DNA of 61,970 nucleotides, counting the filler, from Dugesia japonica (lineage: Eukaryota), in assembly GCA_001938525.1 (NCBI GenBank). It is 4 parts of 4 records of this genome, joined end to end, with 100 filler letters (N's around TTAATTAATTAA, not from the genome) between each part and the next. Parts side by side here need not be neighbours in the genome. Positions count along the whole stretch, not along the records: positions 1 to 29,254 come from MQRL01500362.1; 3 more parts are not named here. One strand, written 5' to 3'. Of the stretch, positions 15,001 through 29,354 are shown piece after piece (the first letter of the stretch is position 1; each line of letters begins with the position of its first letter). A program made the position numbers and the translations under genes. The notes below the pieces were generated by a model. It did not search any database. It was not told where the DNA came from and saw only the letters and a program-made list of their open reading frames with translations.

Positions 15001-15997
15001 TGTAACATATATTATATAAGCAATCAACTATCTATTAATTGTTACTAGAATTTGTCGAATTTGGTCTGAATAATGTTTTTCAATCAATTTGATCATGTTG
15101 TCTGTAATTAAATTTATTTCTATATCTGTTTCTATATTTCAAAATTATTATTGTACTAAATAAAAAGTTTTTAAAAATATTTACAAAAATAAAATGAAAA
15201 TAAATATTCCAATTTGCTATTCTCGTTGACAATTTCATTTTTTTGATCCTGTGGTTGTGTGTGTTTATTAAATTTTAAAATCTGTGTATTTTGGGTTACT
15301 AAGGCGGTTTCTAAAAAGTAGGTCAAGTTGAGTTTGTGTGTGTGAAAGAATGGTTTTGGACTCGACGAGTAGCTGGAGATCTTGAAAATAATTTTTTTGT
15401 AGTTTTTAAGATTTGTTTGTTTATGGACAAAAATTCGATCTAAACATTGTTTAAAGGACTTATGTTGTGTGATGGATGGTTTTTGTTAGAAGGGTAGTGG
15501 CGCCAAGGAACAGTCGTATGAGTTATCGTGGCGTGTTTTTTTGGTAGGTTGTTTTTGTATTGGGTTATTGGATTTGAATGATAAATATTTTCTTGGAAAG
15601 ATAATGTGCTTTGATTTTTTATTTAAAGGGCTCTAATTTGATTGGTTGATTTTTGTAAATAGGATAAGTGTGTTAAAAAAATTTGTCAGGAGGGAGAGAG
15701 GGGTATGTATTGAAAGATGATTAATTATCAGATTTTTTAATAATTATTTGAAATTTTTCTGGTGGAGGTGTGTGACGTCATAATCGTTTGAAATCTTTAT
15801 TTTTGTTAAAAATATTGTAATTTGGTTAAATTGATGAATATCATTACTGCTGCAATTTTTAATAAAAAATCTCATTACCGATGCAATTTTCGATTAAAAA
15901 CCTATATGAGGTGAAGATTTTCTCTAAAAATAACATAATTGTGGTAACAGTTTTCTGTACAAAATGATAAAAACATAGAACGTTTTATAAAAACATG

Positions 15998-17616
15998 TTA
16001 GCTGGGAATTTGTCTTTACAAAATGATAAAAAAAACAGAATTTTTCAATATATATAACTAATAAGTCTATATAAAAAAGACTTATAAGTAAATATTTTGA
16101 TATCTATAAGGTTAATGAGTATATTATTTGCATAGCTACCTTGTATTATTTAAATAGCAACCATGTATTATAAAGATTATGAGTGTATTATTACAAAGTA
16201 ACACTATAAAATAGGGTTTATGAGTGTATTATTTACATAGCAACCATAAATATAAGGTTTATGAGTAAATTATTTCCATAGTTACCTTGGATTATTTACA
16301 TAGCAACCGTGTAATATAAGACTTATAAGGGTATTATTTGCATCGGTACCTTGTATTATAGGGTTTTTGAGTCTACTATTTGCATAGTTACCTTGTATTA
16401 TTTACATAACAACCATAAAATATAAGGTTTATGAGTACATTATTTGTATAGCTACCTTGTAATTTTTACATAGCAACCATGCATTATAAGGATTATGAGT
16501 ATATTATTTCAAAGTAAGCCTGAATAATATGAATTATGAGTACATTATTTGCATAGTTAACTTGCTGTATTTACATAACCACCATGTATTATAAGGATTA
16601 TGAAGTTTTAATACATAGTAACCCTGTAATATAATGTTTACGAGTAAATTATTTGCTTAGATGCCATGTAATATTTTCATAACAACCGTTTAATATATGA
16701 TTTTTGTGTGTATTATTTACATAGTAACTGTGTATTGTAAGTTTTATGAGTCTATTATTTACTTAGTAACTCTGTATAAGGTGTATATTATTTACATTTT
16801 TACAGTGTAATATAAGGCTTATGGGAGTAATATTTACATAGAAAACTGTATAATATAAGACTTATGGGGGAATTATTTACATAGCAATCTTTTATAATAA
16901 GGATTATAAGATTTACGTGTGTATGAGTCTATTTATTACATATTTACCTTGTATTATTTGCATAGCAACCATGTATTATAAGGTTTATGAGTGTTTTTAT
17001 ACATAGTAACCCTGTAATATAATGTTTACGAGTATGTTACTTGCTTAGGTGCCATGTAATATTTACATAACAACCGTTTAATATATGACTTTTGTGTGTA
17101 TTATTTACATAGTAACTGTGTATTATAGGGTTTATGAGTATATTATTTACAAAGTTTTTGTGTATTAGGTGTATATTATTTACATATTTACCTTGTAATA
17201 TAAGGCTTATTGGGAGTAATATTTACATATAATCTGTATAATATAAGACTTATGATTAAATTATTTACATAACAACCGTGTAATATAAGACTTATAAAGG
17301 TATTTGTATATAGTAAAAATATAATATAGAGTTTATGAGTAAACTATTTATATATTAGCCGTGTAATATAAGGTTTACAAGTGTATCATTTGCTTAGTTA
17401 CCATGTAATAGAGTGTTACTTTGTAATAATACACTCATAATCTTTATAATACATGGTTGCTATTTAAATAATACAAGGTAGCTATGCAAATAATATACTC
17501 ATTAACCTTATAGATATCAAAATATTTACTTATAAGTCTTTTTTATATAGACTTATTAGTTATATATATTGGACAATTCTGTTTTTATCAATTTGCATAG
17601 ACAAATTCCCAGCTAA
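15998..17616. repeat. Foldback-like structure: ~205-bp inverted arms around a ~1.2-kb 39/22-bp minisatellite
   Basis: 15998-16205 is the reverse complement of 17412-17616. Internal units resemble TATAAGGTTTATGAGTATATTATTTACATAGCAACCATG. Confidence 0.85.
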
Positions 17617-17639
17617 ACAAAATTCCATATTTACTAAAA

Positions 17640-17960
17640 ATTCTAAATGAAAAATAAAAAATGAAAAATTTTCTATGAAAAATCGAGCATGAAAAATCGA
17701 ACATGAAAAATTTGACAAGAAAAATCCAAATGTAAAATTACGCATGAAAAATTGAACAGGAAAAAATTGAGTATAAAAATTAGAAATGAAAAATTGTGTA
17801 TGAAAAATCTAAATGAAAAATCAAGCATGAAAAATCATGCATAGAAAAATCCAAATGAAAAATCAGGCATAGAAAATCAGGCATAGAAAATCAGGCATAG
17901 AAAATCGGGGAATGAAAAATTCCACAAAGTGATATAAAAAAATTCCCATGAAAAAAAATT
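17640..17960 (+). repeat. Degenerate 13-14-bp tandem repeat (ATGAAAAATC/ATAGAAAATCAGGC) upstream of pPolB
   Basis: About 20 visible iterations; probably the subterminal region of Polinton B. Confidence 0.7.
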
Positions 17961-18021
17961 CCTCTTAAAGAGGACCTTTACCACCTTTTTTATAAATATG
18001 ATTAAAGTTTATCTTTATAAA

Positions 18022-20977
18022 ATGGTAGTAGAAACTTTCACTTGTCGGTATTGTGGAAAAATCATTAAAAAATTGGGAGCTCTTAAAACTCATATAAAAA
18101 TAAGCATGAGTTAAGAATTCCAACACCATGTCCAGAGTAGCATATTTACAATGGAGATTATAAAATAGAATATTTTAAAAATAGCAAAATCGAATTTACA
18201 AAAGACATTTCTCAAGATGCTGTAATAGAAATGACTTTTTACGCAAATGAGTTAAAAGAAATGACAACTAGATTTTTTAATTTAAGAGGGCAAATACTTA
18301 TTCGACTTTCAGCATTATCACTATATGCTAAAATTGTAGAGGGTTTAAATGTAAAAAGAGAGTTTAGATCTTATGCGAAAAATAAAAAAATAATAATGGC
18401 ATCAGAAATTGAAACCGCTGTAGGAGGTTTAATTACTGAAATAGATAAATATATAAGTGATACAGATAGAAGTGAAAGCGGGTGGACTATTGAATTTATA
18501 ATAAATTTTACATATACTCTTGAACGTTATCAATCACTAGTGACCGCTTGGACATATGTCAAGTTGCCATTTATTAAAATGGGAGTAGTAAATATAGAAA
18601 ATAATGATAATAAATGTTTGCTTTATTCAGTTTTGGCACACAAACATATTTATGCAGATCCAACAAGACAAAGTCATTATTTACGACACATCGATGAATT
18701 TAATTTAAAAGGTGCTAATTTTCCAACAAGACTTCATCATGTGCAAATATTTGAAAGATTAAATAATTGGAAAATTAATATTATAGAAATTAAAATTATA
18801 AATGGAATAAAAATATTACAACCACTTCAGATTTCCCATCATGATACACAACCAAAACCAGAGTCTTGCAACAAGAAATATAAAAATATTAGGAAAAAAT
18901 TCTTTGTCCCATTATACTTTCATAATGCGGGTGGTTATGACAATCATCTTTTATTTAGAGAATTATTAGAAAAACACCCAACACAAATTAGTGATATAAT
19001 TCCACACGATGATGAAGTGTATATATCTTTTAGATTTAAGAAAATTAAGTTTTTAGATTCATGCAGATTATGCCAATTGATGACAATTGAAAAAATGGGG
19101 GCTAATTTAAAAGATGGAGGGGTATATCCACATTTAAAATCTTTCAATCTTAAACCGAAAAAAGTTATATTTCCTTACGACTATGTAAGGGGGAAAAGAA
19201 TACAAGAAGTAATGGAATTGTTAAAATTAAATAGAATTCACACAAGGAAAGAATGTTTCAACACAAACAGAAAGAAATAACAGAGGATGAGTATAAGGAA
19301 TTTCTTGAAGATCTTAGCAAATTTCCAAATCTCTGGGAATACATGCTTCACTATATGAAACGTGATGTAATAACTCTTGCAGATTTTTTCGAAAATTTTC
19401 GTAAGACTTCTATAGAAAATATTGGAATCAACCCATGCTACTGTTACTCTTTACCAGGACTTACATGGGCAGCAGGAATGAAATTTACAGGAGATCAGTT
19501 ATTATATGCAAAACCAGAAACTTATGATTACTTTCTAAAAAATGAAGCAGGAATTCGTGGTGGAGTATCTGCTGAAACCGGTGAAAGACAAGTATTCAGT
19601 TATACTAAAGACATGCCTTTTAAGAGGGTAACTAAAGTGGATTGTGAGTATCTAAAGAAATTAAGAGAAAGTGGTAGGTTAAATATTCCAGAATAATTTT
19701 TCGATGAAACATTTTTAAAATATATTGATCAAAACTCCTTGTATGCATCTTGCATGACAAGACCTCTTCCAACCGGTCAGCACATAGAATGTAAAGAACT
19801 AACATATGAAAAAGCAACTAAAGAGTATAATTTCCTCTATGAGGTGGATTAAGATTATCCTCCAGAGATTCATGAGAAAACGAGGTATTTTCCATTAGCT
19901 CCAGAGAGAATAAATATTCAAGAAAAAATGTTGGCTCCTTATCAAAGAAGATTTAATAAAAAAAATCCAAAAGATAATTATAAATTAGCACTTACTCAAT
20001 TCAATAAAAAAAATTACATAGTACAGGGAAGCACTTTAGACTTATATCTTAAACTTGGAATGAAATTGAGAAAAATTCATTGTAAATATAAATTACCAAT
20101 GAAACCGTGGTCAAGAGAATATATTCTTTTTAACGTTGAGAAAAGAAATGTGGCGAAATAAAATAATGATAAAAATAAGGACTACATGTTTAAAATGTGT
20201 AATAATTGATTTTATAACAAAACCCTAGAAAATCCCAGGAAATATACTAGGTTAGAAATGGTTGGATGTGATGAAGATTTTCAAAAGTTTGCTTCTAAAC
20301 CAACTTATGTTTATTCAAAAACGTTTTTCCCAAACACAGCCGCAATGAACTTGTTGCAAACCTATGTAAAATATAATAAATTTCCATACATTGGTTTTAC
20401 GGTTTTAGAATATGCCAAAGAGGAAATGTATGAATTTGTTTATATAGAGATGGCACTAATGATTGGAATGAAAAATTATAAAATTCACTATACCGACACA
20501 GATTCACTCTTTGTTGAAATCAAGGGGCAAGAAAATTTGGACAAGTTGAAAACACTTTTAGGAAATGAACTCTTTCAAATGAAAGGCGAAATGTCAGATA
20601 GTGTAATTTTACAATGTGATCTTTTAAGAGCAAAATGTTATGGTGTATTATTTAAGAAAAAAGATGGAACTACAGAATTTAAACAAGTGCGTAAAGTCAT
20701 CGCAATATATAACAATTTAAAAATGTTTCAGTTTGATAAAATTTTAAATAATCCAAATGAAATAGTTTATGGAAGAAATTATAGATTAAAATCAGAGTGT
20801 CATGAAGTTGAATTAGTTCATCAAGATAAAATTGCATTAACTGCTTATGATGATAAAGTGTTGATAGAAATTAATGAAATTATAATATGGCTAAACGGTA
20901 ATCAATTTTATTGTTATAGAGTTGAAACATGTCATTATAGGTTAGAACTTTTATGGGATGTTTTAGATTGTCTTTAA
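18022..20977 (+). pseudogene. Protein-primed family B DNA polymerase with N-terminal C2H2 zinc finger; stops, frameshifts and a probable internal deletion
   Basis: CRYC..HIKNKH; FHNAGGYD, FLDS, FPYDY and YMKRDV (exonuclease); GIRGG; YIDQNSLY (motif A); K..NN*FYNK (motif B); YTDTDS (motif C). Confidence 0.95.
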
Positions 20978-21486
20978 TTTGTTTAAGTCAAAATTATAAT
21001 TTGGATTTTCATTCTTAGATTTTAAAATTATTTCTTGAACTTCTCGAATCATGGTTTTACTTGTAGAAATTTCTTCATCACTTAAAATATTATCATTTAA
21101 GGCTTTTTGTTGAAATAGGAAAAGTTTATTTTTAACAGCCTCTAATTTTACAATAAGATTGGCATACTTCTTTTTTTGTTTTGAATTAAAGATGAATTCA
21201 ATGCACCAGTAATTGGAATTGAAGATCCTATTCCAGTTATTATAGGAAGACCAATTGTAGTAATTCCTAAACCAAGTGGAGTTGCAATTTTTATTCCATC
21301 ATCAGCTGCAGACCATTTTCTTTAAAATTTTCGATAGTGTTTTATTTTATGATTTATAAAATATAAATCATTTTCGAAATATTTAATTCTTAGGGATGAC
21401 AATTTTGTCTTCAAGTCTTCAAGTGTATAATTACTAATTTCCTGTTGATAATTTTTTAAATCTGGATACAAGGATTCTTCTGCCAT
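20963..21486 (-). pseudogene. Putative membrane protein of Polinton-like elements, disrupted
   Basis: MAEESLYPDL start, Gly-rich hydrophobic stretch (PLGLGITTIGLPIITGIGSSIP), C-terminal KALNDNILSDEE. Confidence 0.5.
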
Positions 21487-21500
21487 TTTATTAAAGGTTT

Positions 21501-21812
21501 TTATAATTCTTCATAAAATTTTTTTCTTTGATCTTTAGGAGGATTACCAGCAAAAATAATAAGTCTATGAATATAAATATTTTCCGGTAAAAATAAATGA
21601 AAAATACTTTTTTCTCTATTATGATAATCATAACCACTTATAGATTGTTTAAGAGTTTTTCTATCTATTTCTATTTTAAATTTTCCAAGTTTTTCTAATT
21701 TAAAATCTAAAACATGATAAGTATTACTAAAAACAAAAATAATATTAATAATTTTATTCACCTTCGTATATCCAGAAATAAAAAGCATATACTGAACCAA
21801 TGTCTTTGTCAT
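21501..21812 (-). CDS. Hypothetical Polinton protein (103 aa)
   Basis: Open ORF tightly packed in the minus-strand gene block; no motif recognised. Confidence 0.5.
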   Translation of the reverse strand: MTKTLVQYMLFISGYTKVNKIINIIFVFSNTYHVLDFKLEKLGKFKIEIDRKTLKQSISGYDYHNREKSIFHLFLPENIYIHRLIIFAGNPPKDQRKKFYEEL

Positions 21813-21814
21813 AT

Positions 21815-22171
21815 TTAAAATAAAGTTTTCAAGGAATCCAAAGAAAAAAATATTTTTTCATTAAGATATTCCCAAAAACCCTTTATTATTATTTTTTCTA
21901 AATTTATATATTCTGAGACGTAGGAATAATATGGAAATCTATTTTCATTTTTACGAAAAAAATGCAATTTAAAAATCGCAAAAAAGCTTAAACTATTTTC
22001 AAGAAAATCTGTTCTTTTAATATCCACCCATGTTAAATAATTATCAATTAATTCTTTTATTTTTTCAAATAACTTTGGAGATTTAGTTTTTTTATATGTT
22101 TCTAAATTTTCATTAATTTCTTTTACATATTCTGGGTGAAGAAGGTTTTTTATATTTTCAAATTCCACCAC
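21815..22171 (-). CDS. Hypothetical Polinton protein (at least 118 aa; 5' end may be disrupted)
   Basis: Open ORF ending 2 nt before the next ATG; no motif recognised. Confidence 0.45.
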   Translation of the reverse strand: MVEFENIKNLLHPEYVKEINENLETYKKTKSPKLFEKIKELIDNYLTWVDIKRTDFLENSLSFFAIFKLHFFRKNENRFPYYSYVSEYINLEKIIIKGFWEYLNEKIFFSLDSLKTLF

Positions 22172-22199
22172 TAAAAGAGAGAAAGGATCATTTTGTTTT

Positions 22200-22475
22200 T
22201 TTTAACTTTTCAACATCATCTTTTATTTGGTAAAAAAACTTTAAAACAAACTGTTTGAGAAATTTATAATTTACTGGATCATCTTCATCTTTAGGGTTAT
22301 TAGTAATTTTAAAGGTTTTAAAATTAATTTTCGAGAAATTTTAAATTTACTGCATCAAGTTCGTGTTTAGGTGGATCAAGAATTTTTAAAGTTTTAATAG
22401 TGCCACCAGACTCATTTACAAATCTTTTTTCATTGCTTGCATTTTGTATTCTTAATTTACCAGAAATATGATTTC
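22200..22475 (-). pseudogene. Short fibre-like protein remnant
   Basis: Two related repeats (ILDPPKHELDAVN and ITNNPKDEDDPVNYKF) of the P..D..DAVN type seen in viral fibre proteins. Confidence 0.35.
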
Positions 22476-22479
22476 CTTA

Positions 22480-22911
22480 TCATTCATCGTTTGTAAGCTT
22501 TCTCCAAATATGTTCCTTTATTTCAGAAATAATATCAAAAGATTTTTTTGGAAAGCTGTACAAAAAATAAATAGAAAGCACTCCACAAATTCTTGTTTCA
22601 AAAGGTTGAACTTGAATTTCATTAAATTTTTCAACATGCTTCTCAAGATTTTCATGAAAAGGTTTTAAACCAAAAGAGTCAAAATAATGTTTATTCTTCA
22701 TTGCAACCCAATGACTTCCATTTTGATTTGAATTTTGATAATTAAAAATATAATTCATATCATTTTCAAATTTATCTGGCAACTCATTTTTCATGTAAAT
22801 TTCCTATGGTATTTTTAAAAATTTTGCAAATGAATAAAGATCAAAATTTGTAGTTGTTGTAATTCCAAATGTTTTTAGAAAATCTAAAATTCCTATTTCA
22901 ATATTGGACAT
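22480..22911 (-). pseudogene. Adenain-like (C5/Ulp1 clan) cysteine protease, one frameshift near the 5' end
   Basis: GSHWVAM (His), YFDSFG (Asp), Q.FETRICG (Gln/Cys). ATG at 22911 overlaps the end of the penton gene. Confidence 0.9.
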
Positions 22912-23567
22912 TTTCTTAAATGAATTAATAATGACATTGTTTCGTTAATAAAATCTACAGGATTAAAATTTTCATCAACAACGTTAAATCTTAACTCATC
23001 AATATAACCACTAGATATTTTTGAGTAAATACGTTGTGGGTGTCTTTCTATTATTTTAAATCCAAACCTTACACTATTTACTGGAAATGAATATAAAAAA
23101 TTAGTTGGTTTATTATTTATATAATTTCCCTTGATTAAATTAGAAGTAATATTGATCATGTTTATATTTTTACTAATGTTTATTTTCTCTTCAGAAAAAT
23201 ATTTTTTTCCAGGAATATATTCTTTTACTGAAAAACCGAAAAGTTTAAAAAAGAAAGATTTATCATCAAATTTTAAATTGGATTTTATTTCAAGCGAACA
23301 TCTAGCTGTTGAGAGATCAGCAATTATAACTATTCCTAGGTCTTTTAATTTCTCTGCAATTTCTTTAACCTTATAGGCTCCAGGTTGAATTTTATTATTT
23401 ACTACATTATAATTAAAATAACAATTTTCTTTTTGTATATTAAAAATAATATTATAACAAGAAAAATAAATTAATCCAAGTTCGTGTTCTCCTATTAATT
23501 CTAACGGATGTTTTAAATTAATTTCTAAATTAGGACCTTTACCAGTAACTAAAAATTGATGAGACAT
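22893..23567 (-). CDS. Minor capsid protein (penton), intact 224 aa
   Basis: PLEL..EHELGL.YF..YN..FNI, IQPGAY, ITSNLIKGNYIN..LYSF, GFKIIE..P..IY and VVDEN..PVDF motifs. Confidence 0.88.
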   Translation of the reverse strand: MSHQFLVTGKGPNLEINLKHPLELIGEHELGLIYFSCYNIIFNIQKENCYFNYNVVNNKIQPGAYKVKEIAEKLKDLGIVIIADLSTARCSLEIKSNLKFDDKSFFFKLFGFSVKEYIPGKKYFSEEKINISKNINMINITSNLIKGNYINNKPTNFLYSFPVNSVRFGFKIIERHPQRIYSKISSGYIDELRFNVVDENFNPVDFINETMSLLIHLRKCPILK

Positions 23568-24399
23568 TTATTTAAAATATTTTTTGAGATAGTCATTATA
23601 TTTTTTATTTGAAATTAATTTCTTTGCTATTAATTTTCCATAGACCGTTTTTATCTCATCGCTAGTATTTTCATGACCCGATATTTTAGCTAAAATTAAA
23701 ACCATTAATTTTTCAAATAAATCTATTCCATCTCCAAAGAATGTTATTTTTTTAATTGTTTTTTAGGTATAGATTCTAGTGATTTAGGTTTTACTTTGGT
23801 TTTCAACATTTTATAATAATTTCCTTTCTTTGGATGTTTAATATTTAATTTGTATAAATATATATTTACATCTTCTGATTTATAAATATCAGTTTCTTAT
23901 CCTTTTCCTAAAATTAAATGCAATATTTCATCTTTGTATGGAATAAGTTCATTTCCTGTATAAAAATATGGCTTTGTATCCTTTTCAACTAAATATATTT
24001 TTTATTATTAGTTTTTATGGTTGGATACATTTTTTCATTAATATTTAATTCTGGTGTTGTTGTTGGTGTTAAATCTTTTTTATTAAGTGTAATTTTTTCA
24101 TCATTTATCAAGTGTGGTTCTAATATTGGATCTAATTTTGGTTCTAATATCGGTTGAACCATAGGCTGCGATGTTTGTACTGCAGGGGATTTTATTTCTT
24201 GTCCTGATTGTGATAGGGTTAACGGTTGTAATTGTTGTTGTACTGTTTATTGTAATGCTGAAATTAATAGTTGTTGTTGAAAAGCAAGTGATGATTGTAA
24301 ATTTTTAGATTGAAGAACTTAACTCGTGAAATATTCATTATATTTTTCTTCAGCTGCAATTATTTCTTTTAATTCTTTAATTCTCGCTACGCTGTCCAT
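23568..24399 (-). pseudogene. Conserved Polinton protein with Pro/Gln-rich middle, disrupted
   Basis: C-terminal DLFEKLMVLILAKISGHENTSDEI resembles the L..RL.LL.A...AGN....EI motif; its TAA abuts the penton ATG. Confidence 0.55.
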
Positions 24400-24441
24400 T
24401 TTATTAAGGATTTAAATATATTCCTGTTCCATCATAGGGTC

Positions 24442-24923
24442 TTAAAAATATTTCCCTCCCTTTTTTAATTCTTTCGATGGTTTTAAATTTTGATTTCTTA
24501 AATATTTATAAATTGCTTCACCCTGTTTTTCACTTTTCTTTTTTACTTCAAATTCTTTTTCTTTTTGATTTAATTGATCAATTTCAAGTTGATGTTTAAC
24601 TGCCTCTCGGGAACTTGAAACGGTGGATGCGATTCCACTGGCTACGCCGGCAAGGCTCGCTGCAGCAGCAAGAATTCCCGGCATGGCGGACAAGAAAAAA
24701 AGACCGCATTGTTCTTTTTGATGTTTTTCATTTCTTCTTTTGCTTTTTTACCTATCCAATAATTTTTACCATTAACTTTAATCGATCTACTAAGATTTGA
24801 ATTTATTAATTTTTTTAATTCTTCTTCTGTTATATTTGTATTATTTGGTTCTGGTCGTGCTTCGCTTCGCTCGCTAGTACTTCCTTTTAGTTGTGCCACT
24901 TTGCTCGCCATTTTAGTTAGCAA
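24442..24923 (-). pseudogene. Small amphipathic/basic virion core or membrane-active protein (frameshifted into two ORFs)
   Basis: MPGILAAAASLAGVASGIASTV amphipathic helix followed by a coiled, basic tail. Confidence 0.5.
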
Positions 24924-25659
24924 AAAGATCAGTTGTCATTTCATTTGTTAATTGATTTAAATAAAAATATGTATAGGGTTCTTTCCAATGAAAATTTACT
25001 TCATAATCATATTCATCTTTATCAGTAAATACATTAGAAAATAAATCACTATAAACACTGTCACTATCTTTTTTATTTAATCGAAAAAATATAAAACAAT
25101 TTGCATTATTTCTTATTGAATTTTTATCAAGGTGAAAATATGTTTGTGAAATGTAAATTACATTACAATTTGAATGTCTACCTCGAGTGAAATAACTTTT
25201 TCGAGTTTCTTGTTTTTTATTTACAACATCATCAAAAATTACAAGATTCTTTTTTAATTTTTCACAGCGGATAATCTCTAATGGATCACTACTTAGGGTT
25301 ATTCCAATTACCTGCGGTCTTTTTGTTACAAATTTCTTTTGAATGAAAAAATCTATAACTTCTATTGGGGTCGCACAGGAATCTGGAACAATCGCTTGCT
25401 TCTCAAATATAAATATTATTTCTTGTTTTGTTAATCCATTTAAAAATCCATGATTTAATAACTGTACTTCAAATTGATTAATTGTAGTTGAATAAATTAT
25501 GAGAATATCATAATCAAGAAAACCGAGCGTAAGTAACATTTGAGTCAAGAGAACATTTTTTCAACAACCAGAAGATCCAATTATTAATAATCTAAAGTTG
25601 CTGGGGAAAAGTTTAATTTTAAAAGTTACCTTGTCTCTTTTCCAAACTAAATTACTCAT
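24913..25659 (-). pseudogene. A32-like genome packaging ATPase with a nonsense codon in Walker A
   Basis: RLLIIGSSGC*K (GGA>TGA), LVIFDD, and RGRHSNCNVIYISQ..IRNN. Confidence 0.92.
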
Positions 25660-25665
25660 CCTTTT

Positions 25666-26469
25666 TCATAAAGAAGTTTTTTGTAACTCCTTCTCATAAA
25701 ATCTTACAAGAATTTTTCTCCGTTTGAATCACTAATTTCATAAGTTGGTGGAATTGTTAAATAAATTTTTCTAATAAAATAAGTTTCTACAGACCATTTA
25801 AATCTATATTTTTTTTCAAATGTATTTTTTTTAATTATAAATACTCTAACTTTATCTCCTATTTTAAATTTATGTTTAAAATTTTTAGATCACTTTTCTT
25901 TGGGTTCCTCATTGAAAACTTTACCACTAATGTATGCTTCTGTCGGAGTTGTCTTTATTGAAGAATGAATTGTATTATTATAGTTGTCTACTATTTCTTG
26001 TGTGAGCTCTTGTGTGATTTCTTGATTCCCTTCATCAGTAAAAGGTTTAAATAGTTTGTTTTTAAATGTTTGGTTAAATCTTTCAATGACAACTGGCTTT
26101 CTATGATTATAAGTAGAGTACATGTTGATACTATTTTTTCTACACAAATCAGAAAATGTTTTGTTGTAAAATTCCTTTACTTGATCAATCCAAAGATTAT
26201 TTGGAACTTGACCACTATTTTCTAGAATACTTTGAAATGCTTCGGTAATCACTGGACCGGTTTTATTATCACTTGTATATAGATCTTGTATAAAGATCGA
26301 TCACAGTTAACATTACTTGTTTATTATGAAATGTTAAATCTGCAGACCAAGTTTCATCTTTTTCACTTACAGTTACTTTTAATAATTGTTTTGGTTTTCT
26401 ATAATTACGATGAAGCTCGTCTGCTAGTCCTCCTCCTATAGATTGACCAATTAAGAATTTTTCCTTCAT
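25666..26469 (-). pseudogene. Retroviral-like DDE integrase (C-terminal part of a probable PLA2-integrase fusion)
   Basis: LADELHR, WSADL, LTVID, LWIDQ.KEFYN, IERFNQT, YNNTIHSSIK.TP, FKIGDKVR and FYEKELQK motifs. Confidence 0.92.
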
Positions 26470-26888
26470 TGCAATTTTTACAAGACTTCCTTAAAATTTT
26501 TCTTCTGGTGTTGGATCTTCAATATTATTAATATCTTCTATTAAATGTACATCAGCTACGTGTTGATCTCTCATGTCTTCTGAATTATAAGCAATGTCAT
26601 GTTTCAACGCAGCTGCATCAATTCTATTAATTGGTTCTTCTCCTGGTAATGGATTATTATTTTCATCAAGTCTTAAATCTAATCTAGTTCCGGGACCAGT
26701 GTAATTGTGATGAAATAAATGTCTTTCATCGGGGTATTTGTCCCAATTAAATGGTTTTAAAATATTACTAACAAAACTTGATGATTGAAGATCGCCGCCA
26801 CCTTTACAAAGTTTCATATGCCTAGCTTTATTTTTTTTAACATGGTTCTATGACATTTTTCATATGTAAATTTAAACGATTTAGTCAT
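26470..26888 (-). pseudogene. Parvovirus-type phospholipase A2 domain (PLA2X) preceded by a C2HC-like zinc finger
   Basis: HNYTGPGT (Ca2+ loop), PINRIDAAALKHDIAY (His-Asp) and AD. Upstream (Y)EKC-x9-H-x3-C is read across one frameshift. Confidence 0.88.
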
Positions 26889-26892
26889 TTTT

Positions 26893-28143
26893 TTAACGAC
26901 TAAATTCAACACCTTTAACATTTTCAATCATTGCAATTTTATTATTAGCTAATTTCATTTCAATGTGTTTTTCTTCAAGAATACACCAGTAAAGACTTCA
27001 TGTAAAATCTGGATCCTTTGATCAACATTTATTTATATTTAATCTAACATCTTGAGCTGAAAGATCAAAACAGAAAATTGGATATTCGTCACCAAATTCT
27101 TGAAGAGATAATTGAGGTTCTATGAAAAAGTCTTGACAACATTTTAAATAATTTAAATAGAGAGAAATCATTTCATTATTTTCCACATTAAATTTACATT
27201 CATTAATTGGATAGTAATTATTGTTTAATGGAATTTGCATGCTTTTTAAATAATAATTTTCAATTTTATCTCCGACTGCTGGCGCTACTGCTTTTGTGGT
27301 TTTTGTTTTCTTTTTAATAAATAAATTATTATTATTTGCAAAAGAAATAGTTTCATTTTTCATAGCAATAAAAATATATCTTGGTTTGTATGCTAGCATA
27401 CTTAATTTTATAAAAGTATAATTTCCAGTATTTAATATTGCCTTTCCTGTAATTCCATTTAAAAATGCAACTTTAATTGGTTTATCAGTTGAGATTCTTT
27501 CTAAAAGCATTAATTCCATTTTAGGTGCTAATATAAATTCTGGAATGTGTCATTCAAGAGTCATTAATTTTAAATTTAGAGAGCCTTCTCCTTTAAATAA
27601 AAGTTTATTATTAATTTGTCTATAACAATTAAATTCAATCATTGTATTGTAAAATACGCGGGTAAAATTTTGAATGAATCCAAATAAATTTTTCAATGGA
27701 AAATAACCTTCAAATTTTTAAGAAGCATAAAATTTCTTTCTTCTATCTTCTTCAAGAATACATCCTGATAATTCTCCATATATTTCTCTATGTATATAAT
27801 TTGTTGTAACAAAATTTAACATTGTTGATATAGTGCCAGGGTCGCTAATAGTTTCTTCATCTGATGCTCCAAGTTTTAATCTCATAAATTTAAATAATGA
27901 TGGGAAAAAATTATTTTCTAGTATTGCAGTTTTTCCTTCGGTATATTCTAATTCTATTCTAAAGTATAACATTGCATTACAAATATCTAACGAATTTGTT
28001 GATTGTAAAGATTGAAAAGTTATCTCCCCATATTTTATTAAATTTGAAATTGTACTAGATGATGGTGAAATTTTTAAAATGTCATTTTTTAACATTTCAT
28101 GAGTAAAAATAATATTATTATCGAGATTTATTTTTCCTTCCAT
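26893..28143 (-). pseudogene. Major capsid protein (hexon-like double jelly roll), disrupted
   Basis: ORFs 27718-28143 and 27022-27519 with LENNFFPSLF, KPRYIFIAM, YYP and YPIFCFDLS; about 415 codons in total. Confidence 0.82.
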
Positions 28144-28180
28144 TTTCTATAGTAATTTTTTTAACTGTTATAAAAATTCA

Positions 28181-28705
28181 TTATATCACTCGGTCTTTTT
28201 CTTTTATATTTTCCATTACCGTTGCCCTTACTATTACATTTACCATCACTTTTACAGTTGGCCCTACGATTATCATTACTTTTGTCCCTATCGTTACCAT
28301 TACTTTTTCCACGGAATTTTTTTCAAGTTTATCTTCTAAAGAAATAAATCTTCCATTTAAATCTCTTTCCATTAATGTTTTTGTTGTTCTTTTATTAAAT
28401 GGAATGTTAAATTTAATTATATATGTTTTTATTGTTTCTTCATTAAATGGATGAAGCTTACAAAAATATTTTATTGAATTTTTTTTAAAATTAAAATTTT
28501 TCATCATTTTGTGTAAAACAGTCTCCTTTTTTATAAATATTTTTTTAGCTGTTGCTCTAATTTTTCCTGAGCATGTTGTTGGGACTTTCACACGTTAAAA
28601 TTTATCAATAATCTTTTCTTTACCTTCTAAATTATTATAAAAATTTATAATCTCTTTTTGTGAAAGTCGCTTTCTACCTTCTTTTAATTTAAATGCAAAA
28701 CTCAT
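28181..28705 (-). pseudogene. Hypothetical basic Polinton protein, one internal stop
   Basis: ATG at 28705 is in frame with ORF 28181-28591 across one TAA; the 3' part has a degenerate 24-bp repeat. Confidence 0.45.
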
Positions 28706-28731
28706 ATCTTTATAATTAATTATTAATGGTT

Positions 28732-29254
28732 AGTAGGTAGATAGTAGCGCACTGTATCACCCCTCCCTCCGTTGACCTAAACGGATTATTACATAAGTGA
28801 TCCAGTATTTTTCTAATGTAAATAGGCGGTGGCACACATTTGTGTGAGTTACATAATGTAATTCGCGAGAATTAATACATAAGTGATCCAGTGTTTTTTA
28901 TGTGAATTTAGGCGAGAACAAAATTTATGTGTGCCAGATTAATTTCGTCGCGAGATTATTACATAAGTGATCCAGTATTTTTTATTTTTACTGTGTATTT
29001 AGTTGGGTAAAGTTTTTTATAGGATTTTTTTATGAAAATTCGGGTAAACAACTCAATTTGTTTAAATAATATGAAAATTTAAAAATTTTTTAAATCAAAT
29101 TTTTATTTTTATGGGAATCCGGGAGAACCTCTAAAATTTCGAAAATTTTTGAAAATTTTTTTTATCGAGATTTTTACTTGAATCGTTGGAGAATTCGATG
29201 GAGATTATTTTTCACAAATAAAAATTTTTCGAAAAAATTATTTCTCATCTTTAC
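28732..29254 (+). mobile_element. Polinton terminus/TIR pointing right, with three TACATAAGTGATCCAGT repeats
   Basis: AGTAGGTAGATAGTAGCGCACTG start, C-tract, repeats at about 28790, 28876 and 28960, and AAATTTTT repeats. Truncated by the contig end. Confidence 0.75.
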
Positions 29255-29354
29255 NNNNNNNNNNNNNNNNNNNNNNNNNNNNNNNNNNNNNNNNNNNNTT
29301 AATTAATTAANNNNNNNNNNNNNNNNNNNNNNNNNNNNNNNNNNNNNNNNNNNN
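29255..29354. other. Artificial contig linker
   Basis: 44 N + TTAATTAATTAA (stops in six frames) + 44 N. Confidence 0.97.

Follow-up and report, generated by a model that had tools for sequence, protein, structure and literature searches.

How does the integrase of a Polinton (Maverick) reach a new cell? The question is raised by a gene of Dugesia japonica in which a parvovirus-type phospholipase A2 (PLA2) is followed by an rve integrase. The initial annotation had read this gene as a zinc finger–PLA2–integrase polyprotein with a premature stop codon and adenain-like cleavage sites at its domain borders, from which the element's own protease would release an entry enzyme and an integrase together. 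The present analysis covers the window, that is, the whole stretch of 61,970 nucleotides taken from assembly GCA_001938525.1, as well as relatives of the gene in protein and metagenome collections. The pattern of fusion and border motifs suggests, with a probability that we put at roughly 0.6, that such genes encode a precursor that is packaged whole and then cleaved. All of the parts are known already, whereas the arrangement and the modular joint appear to be undescribed.

A PLA2–integrase gene in a decayed Polinton

The window is AT-rich eukaryotic DNA, and from ~18100 to 28600 it is occupied by a dead, decayed copy of a Polinton/Maverick (Polintoviricetes), in which genes for PolB, rve integrase, ATPase, double-jelly-roll capsid and clan-CE protease are all present (Table 1). 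PolB lies on the plus strand; the capsid, the PLA2–integrase gene, the ATPase, small ORFs, a probable penton and the cysteine protease lie on the minus strand. The PLA2–integrase gene begins with an ATG at 26888, 4 nt past the capsid stop (26893–26895), and terminates at a stop at 25666–25668, just before the start of the ATPase. When 28551–29300 and 15501–18200 were compared with the window by blastn, no inverted pair was found around the genes that could represent terminal inverted repeats; N's begin at ~29256. Past the last Polinton ORF, 28735–29255 contains three copies of a 20–30-nt repeat and AT-rich repeats, possibly a subterminal region, which has no inverted partner in the window and leads into the N gap. 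The polymerase end of the Polinton adjoins a non-coding element (15998–17616) with 211-nt inverted arms (95.7% identical) and internal tandem repeats, followed by 14-nt tandem repeats at 17623–17934. An LTR retrotransposon remnant with pieces of rve integrase (E 2.2e-14) and reverse transcriptase (E 2.1e-14) is found on the minus strand at 6149–8047.

Table 1. Features of the Polinton copy, with positions in the window and the basis of each assignment (L, loci; P, proteins; X, sequencing runs).
Feature	Position	Strand	Basis
Protein-primed DNA polymerase B, in pieces	18141..20977	+	DNA_pol_B_2, E 0.0029; tblastn matches in L015, L054, L055, L058, L075
Clan-CE (adenain/Ulp1-like) cysteine protease, one stop in 5' part	22480..22910	-	Motifs, profile, model of a relative
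Probable minor capsid (penton) gene	22893..23567	-	Position and tblastn matches in L007, L074, L092; no Pfam match
Small ORF with hydrophobic helix, candidate pX-like core protein	24442..24747	-	Look and position; no profile match
A32/FtsK-type packaging ATPase, stop near Walker A	24913..25659	-	Pox_A32, E 2.4e-6
rve integrase core and C-terminal domain, two frameshifts and one stop	25666..26424	-	Profiles; Foldseek with P0002
PLA2–integrase linker GQSIGGGL, candidate protease site	26425..26448	-	Border motif in relatives; low pLDDT in P0002 model
Parvovirus-type PLA2 domain, including last helix past the stop	26446..26793	-	PF08398, E 4.1e-9; own profile 26772-26455, E 5e-50
Premature stop within last PLA2 helix	26491..26493	-	Sister-copy contigs X1, X5, X8; relatives open
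GGGD, N-terminal glycine motif before PLA2	26794..26805	-	Sequence; GG/GxG at this border in relatives
Gene 5' start: ATG and degenerate zinc-finger-like segment, A-run frameshift	26830..26888	-	Position relative to C2H2 finger of P0002 and close relatives; profile score not significant
Double-jelly-roll major capsid gene, in pieces	26893..28146	-	PF21738, E 3.3e-4; tblastn matches in fused-gene loci L001, L007

ORF and profile mapping bears out the claim that the PLA2 and integrase ORFs share one frame with a single stop between them. The PLA2 frame runs through 26494–26847, meets one stop at 26491–26493 and continues in the same frame via GSLVKIAMKEKFLIGQSIGGGLADELHR to the start of the integrase, which matches integrase profile positions 1–55 at 26424–26272 (E 8e-18). 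Chance does not account for the shared frame, since many intact relatives have an open junction at this place. Both the calcium loop (YTGPG) and the catalytic HD motif of the PLA2 are present in the window copy, and the DDE residues are recognizable within its integrase pieces.

The stop at 26491–26493 is a product of decay of this copy, as had been proposed. The gene has four further breaks, namely frameshifts in an A-run near 26830–26838, near 26270–26300 and near 25700–25725, and a stop at 25890–25892. Four sequencing runs of the host species were compared with 25550–27050 of the window. The contigs matching this interval number 3,747 in X1 and 3,766 in X5, and the family is thus high-copy and diverged. 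Reading the codon in these other copies, among the differences listed (40 of 270), another letter within the stop codon accounts for most of the contig depth: 664.5 of 716.3 in X1 (21 contigs), 605.4 of 712.1 in X5 (22 contigs) and 45.2 of 45.2 in X8 (6 contigs). In the sister copies with a changed letter the codon becomes sense, and two gap-free contigs of X8 span the PLA2–integrase linker (26335–26472 and 26345–26516). About a quarter of a raw RNA run, X14, was read and gave 36 reads, none of them 95% alike and none covering the stop codon. That the stop is functional in the window's family, either dividing two genes or being read through, is highly improbable: the window copy does have a Met 8 codons past it, but the stop cuts the conserved last PLA2 helix in a gene with four other breaks, relatives are open at this position, and the sister copies, most of which differ within the codon, largely refute such a function.

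Fusion of PLA2 and integrase among relatives

The fusion of PLA2 and integrase is almost certainly real, and its native state is a single ORF, as the initial annotation had supposed. The closest intact relative (P0002, 463 aa, 70% identical) carries finger, PLA2 and integrase in one ORF. A search for longer PLA2 homologs returned 39 proteins, comprising 16 with both PF08398 and PF00665, 19 Lottia gigantea gene models and 4 others, and both families were matched in 18 of 18 aligned fused members. A metagenome search with the fused alignment returned 72 loci; 48 of these include the last PLA2 helix and have the integrase in the same ORF (22), in another ORF within 600 nt (13) or far away (3), while five end too soon and five have none. 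Both of these searches favor fused forms by design. In three of the 13 loci with another ORF (L028, L030, L035) the integrase begins at a Met of its own, and the rest of those viewed (L042 was left out) are breaks at or near the junction. A phmmer search with PLA2 only, which has no bias toward fusion, yielded 569 cluster representatives; an integrase follows the PLA2 in 18 of the best 150 matches, many of the others being fragments. Scans of viral contigs gave 0, 1, 18 and 1 loci, and a scan of prokaryote genomes gave no loci. The fusion is already carried by sequence databases under automatic names: in ESM Atlas clusters of 184, 111 and 72 members most members have both families (feature scores 0.82–0.85, a lead only). 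The accessible literature contains no description of it that we found, and Repbase reports, subscription papers, figures and preprint supplements may show one.

The fused gene belongs to Polintons elsewhere as well. It shares a contig with a Polinton capsid, ATPase or protease gene in nine loci (L001, L002, L004, L005, L007, L018, L038, L074, L092), with the protease present in L018 and L074. About 1 kb interrupts the gene upstream in L074 (2530–3700), and this insert includes a 113-aa ORF (2804–3142) that by eye resembles a GIY-YIG endonuclease. A quick integrase tree places the window in a group of 49 rows (SH-aLRT 81) that are fused, junction-broken or truncated; stand-alone integrases fall outside it. 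In P0183 the integrase joined to the PLA2 at the same border belongs to another clade (SH-aLRT 100 with L030 and L035). P0040 shares the N-terminal motif of P0183; thus, the joint has been used with at least two integrase types. In the PLA2 tree (quick method, 111 columns, 47 of 94 inner branches open) fused and unfused states are scattered, and the two trees do not give the order of fusion and fission events.

Unfused arrangements bear on one alternative, in which the fusion is a by-product of compaction of two adjacent genes with no link to packaging. The integrase would then arise on its own through internal initiation or splicing, or else the precursor would be trimmed by a host GG-specific protease of the SENP/Ulp1 type. 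A sister clade (L027, L028, L030, L031, L032, L034, L035; SH-aLRT 97) has a stand-alone PLA2 that ends 2–4 residues past the glycine motif at its C-terminal border; in the six junctions that were inspected, what follows is an integrase of a different type, the one that is fused in P0183 and P0040, and it begins with its own Met 10–25 nt downstream. The genes are also kept apart in L047, L048, L058 and L075, and the fold of the element's protease is common to host SENP/Ulp1 enzymes. Against this alternative, the linker has no conserved Met (a Met is present in 9 of 45 fused proteins), and the fused state fills the large integrase clade and recurs with a second integrase type. We regard the compaction scenario as distinctly unlikely.

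A programmed −1 frameshift, producing PLA2 alone as well as PLA2–integrase, was also considered. In five loci (L013:349–520, L040:496–670, L041, L044, L053) the PLA2 ORF stops 8–12 residues past the glycine motif; the integrase then follows in the −1 frame with no Met of its own, and the overlap contains A-rich runs. As the main reading this was rejected in favor of probable homopolymer decay: two other loci are +1 (L046, L050), the PLA2 of L046 is identical to that of the fused L026 with an A-run of different length, the same clade contains in-frame members (L026, P0184, L092), and the downstream stretches of the five loci fold no better than shuffles (z −1.29 to +0.28). The short tail of P0154 is nearly the same as that of L013, and in these two a programmed frameshift, read from sequence, could still operate.

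The regions around the two enzymes are less uniform. The zinc finger is the weakest part of the polyprotein proposed for the window, where it is identified only by where it lies in comparison with the closest relatives. The first frameshift divides it, only 2 of the 4 expected ligands are recognizable, and when the break is read as X its score against a profile built from the relatives' fingers is 1.1 bits, compared with up to 10.2 bits for shuffles. The finger does form part of the polyprotein in P0002 and some relatives, with the four ligands of a U1/matrin-like C2H2 finger in register in close relatives and zf-U1 matches in 3 of 18 fused proteins, but it is optional; among 51 fused representatives the leader shows a C2H2 pattern in 12, a four-cysteine pattern in 3 (DUF5679 in P0183 and L092) and neither in 14, and fewer than 15 residues lie upstream in 22. 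The segment past the stop had been taken for the C-terminal helix of PLA2X. It is the last helix of the PLA2 but not a pX-like domain, and the PLA2X label itself is not supported: Adeno_PX matched 0 of 18 fused proteins at E 0.05, and in the fused elements L074 and L092 a pX-like domain is a separate ORF with weak Adeno_PX matches (E 0.046 and 0.0078, respectively). At the integrase end, Foldseek matches P0002 to retroviral intasomes and to a MELD-virus integrase.

Glycine motifs at the borders of PLA2

The glycine runs said to flank the PLA2, LCKGGGD and SIGGGL, are present in the window, and glycine motifs are conserved at both borders in relatives. Motifs were counted on PLA2 cores dereplicated at 90%, with the 19 Lottia gene models and the window dropped; "fused" denotes an integrase profile match or the integrase first-helix motif, a definition by which a few rows may be mislabeled. 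At the C-terminal border, a 12-residue window contains GG or GxG in 47 of 51 fused proteins and in 48 of 80 that are not fused; within 14 residues of the N-terminal border the figures are 27 of 34 and 30 of 43. Of 7,949 fourteen-residue windows in the body of the integrase, 25 contain the motif. Because non-fused PLA2s also carry it, the C-terminal motif is a feature of the PLA2 module and was not made for the fusion. An apparent depletion of GG/GxG inside the integrase (1 seen against a shuffle mean of 18) was rejected as evidence, as G pairs at spacings of 4, 6, 7 and 8 are equally rare.

The more specific assignment, adenain sites of the form (M/I/L)xGG|X at the domain borders, was not sustained. 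The 47 fused C-terminal motifs comprise 14 of type GG|X and 33 of type GX|G, and since the P4 residue is M, I or L in only 6 of them and K in 22, the adenain rule is not kept in relatives, either as (M/I/L)xGG|X or as (M/I/L)xGx|G. In the window LCKGGGD does not fit. The one match is IGGG|L within SIGGGL, and the glycine aligned with the conserved site of relatives is found four residues upstream of it; in this copy that site reads GQS, with no Gly at +1 or +2. Of the features that the proposed survey was to look for, the widespread PLA2–integrase fusion and a GG/GxG linker emerged, while the strict adenain form did not. By motif and position, the borders do agree with mavirus-type GG|X and GX|G sites in an exposed linker. 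In an AlphaFold2 model of P0002 (mean pLDDT 71.9, pTM 0.43) the two motifs lie in low-pLDDT segments (30–50 and 153–164) that flank a confident PLA2, and the stand-alone integrase of L075 has its start 8 residues ahead of the helix that comes after the linker in fused proteins.

The element also encodes an adenain-like protease of its own, as the initial annotation had implied. The open 3' part of the protease ORF (22480–22803) aligns with four relatives and keeps the His, Asp, Gln and Cys residues of this clan-CE enzyme; a profile of the ORF and its relatives matches adenain (PDB 1avp, E 0.0023), and a model of the L018 protease (pLDDT 88.1) matches adenain 1nln (E 7.9e-5, TM 0.63), with host SENP/Ulp1 also among the clan-CE matches.

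The principal alternative to cleavage, which we judge unlikely though less so than the compaction scenario, is that the fusion stays uncut as a multidomain protein in which K-x-K-x-x-x-G-(G/x-G) caps the last PLA2 helix and provides a flexible tether. Such a role would accord with the mostly lysine P4 and with the persistence of the motif in stand-alone PLA2s that end 2–3 residues later (L031, L032, L034, P0163), where a cut would remove almost nothing. GxG is also found in the folded PLA2 core, as G-P-G of the calcium loop in 33 of 51 proteins, and so GxG alone is not a cut signal. A helix cap, however, hardly explains the second, independent glycine pair at the N-terminal border, and the two forms of the motif, GG|X and GX|G, are exactly those measured as sites of the mavirus protease. 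The linker is of variable length (2–56 residues), and the separate pX-like ORF of L074 likewise has GG directly ahead of its hydrophobic helix.

A proposed cleavable precursor and its possible role in virions

Cleavage of a co-packaged PLA2–integrase precursor stays the reading that we favor, and it can be set beside several known systems. Adintoviruses have a parvovirus-VP1-type PLA2 in a Polinton virion module with adenain, FtsK ATPase, hexon, penton, PolB and rve integrase. What defines PLA2X there is a pX-like domain at the C-terminus of the same protein, and PLA2X is listed as a gene in its own right (Starrett et al. 2021, PMC8502044). Here, by contrast, the PLA2 is followed by the integrase, and L074 and L092 carry the pX-like ORF apart from the fused gene. 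The Spodoptera elements Sf Maverick 1/2 have a CAP protein containing a PLA2 with catalytic and calcium-binding residues, an rve integrase (INT) and an adenovirus-type protease (PMC5803895), but CAP and INT are separate ORFs and their integrases have a chromodomain, for which P0002 has no Pfam match and L092 a weak one. The mavirus protease, also of clan CE, cuts GG|X and GX|G, and mavirus virions contain the integrase MV02 along with a hydrolase, MV13, that is cleaved at GK|G (Born et al. 2018, PMC6048507); there, integrase and hydrolase are separate genes and the latter is a predicted alpha/beta hydrolase, not a PLA2. Adenovirus pVI is a membrane-active core precursor that is cut at IVGL|G, freeing a short basic peptide (PMC4246237; adomavirus LO6, bioRxiv 341131). 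Non-fused PLA2s such as P0118, P0139 and P0145 have short basic tails after xGL|G that bear a resemblance to the pVIc peptide; of the 27 short tails that follow the motif in non-fused PLA2s, 13 have a K/R content of at least 25%. The strict P4 rule is not followed here, and the cargo behind the site is an enzyme. Polinton lipases have already been proposed to be packed in virions and to aid entry (PMC4642659), and no virions of Maverick-Polintons have been seen according to a 2026 preprint (10.64898/2026.06.19.733378).

In the proposed pathway, a precursor consisting of an optional nucleic-acid-binding leader (here a C2H2-type finger), GG, PLA2, G(G/xG) and rve integrase would be packaged as a core protein, perhaps with the leader bound to the genome. 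As the particle matures, the element's protease would cleave at GG|X or GX|G, in the way that the mavirus capsid protein is processed by the mavirus protease, and the products would be a free PLA2, which may act as a parvovirus-like entry enzyme helping membrane escape, and an integrase with an N-terminus like that of stand-alone Polinton integrases. Integrase would in this way be loaded at a fixed ratio, and an incoming genome could integrate without prior gene expression.

Retroviral integrase enters the particle on a structural precursor, Gag-Pol, and is freed by the viral protease. The likeness is one of logic: in the Polinton, too, the integrase would enter on a structural precursor and be freed by a protease, but the element is a dsDNA one, the fusion is in frame and to an entry enzyme, the protease is a cysteine and not an aspartic enzyme, and a programmed frameshift was tested and is unsupported.

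The cut sites would be older than the fusion, marking the points at which the PLA2 module is processed, and what lies behind the C-terminal glycines appears to be a modular slot: it may be empty, or be occupied by a pX-like tail, by a short basic tail or by an integrase from either of at least two lineages. A broader reading, which we offer tentatively and consider slightly short of even odds, is that the Polinton PLA2 is a protease-cleavable carrier whose cargo behind the C-terminal glycine site is loaded into the virion and freed on maturation, the integrase having been plugged in at least twice.

These genes also offer natural substrate–enzyme pairs for measuring the specificity of Polinton proteases. 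An integrase fused to an entry enzyme over candidate protease sites, and kept so in a large clade, is most sensible if the integrase is a virion component, and the fusion suggests a route by which it reaches a new cell. If the carrier reading is true, these elements would represent a dsDNA virus with Gag-Pol-like delivery of a ready-made integrase together with an entry enzyme, and the fusion would provide direct evidence, from the genes themselves, for the spread of these Polintons as particles whose genome integrates on entry.
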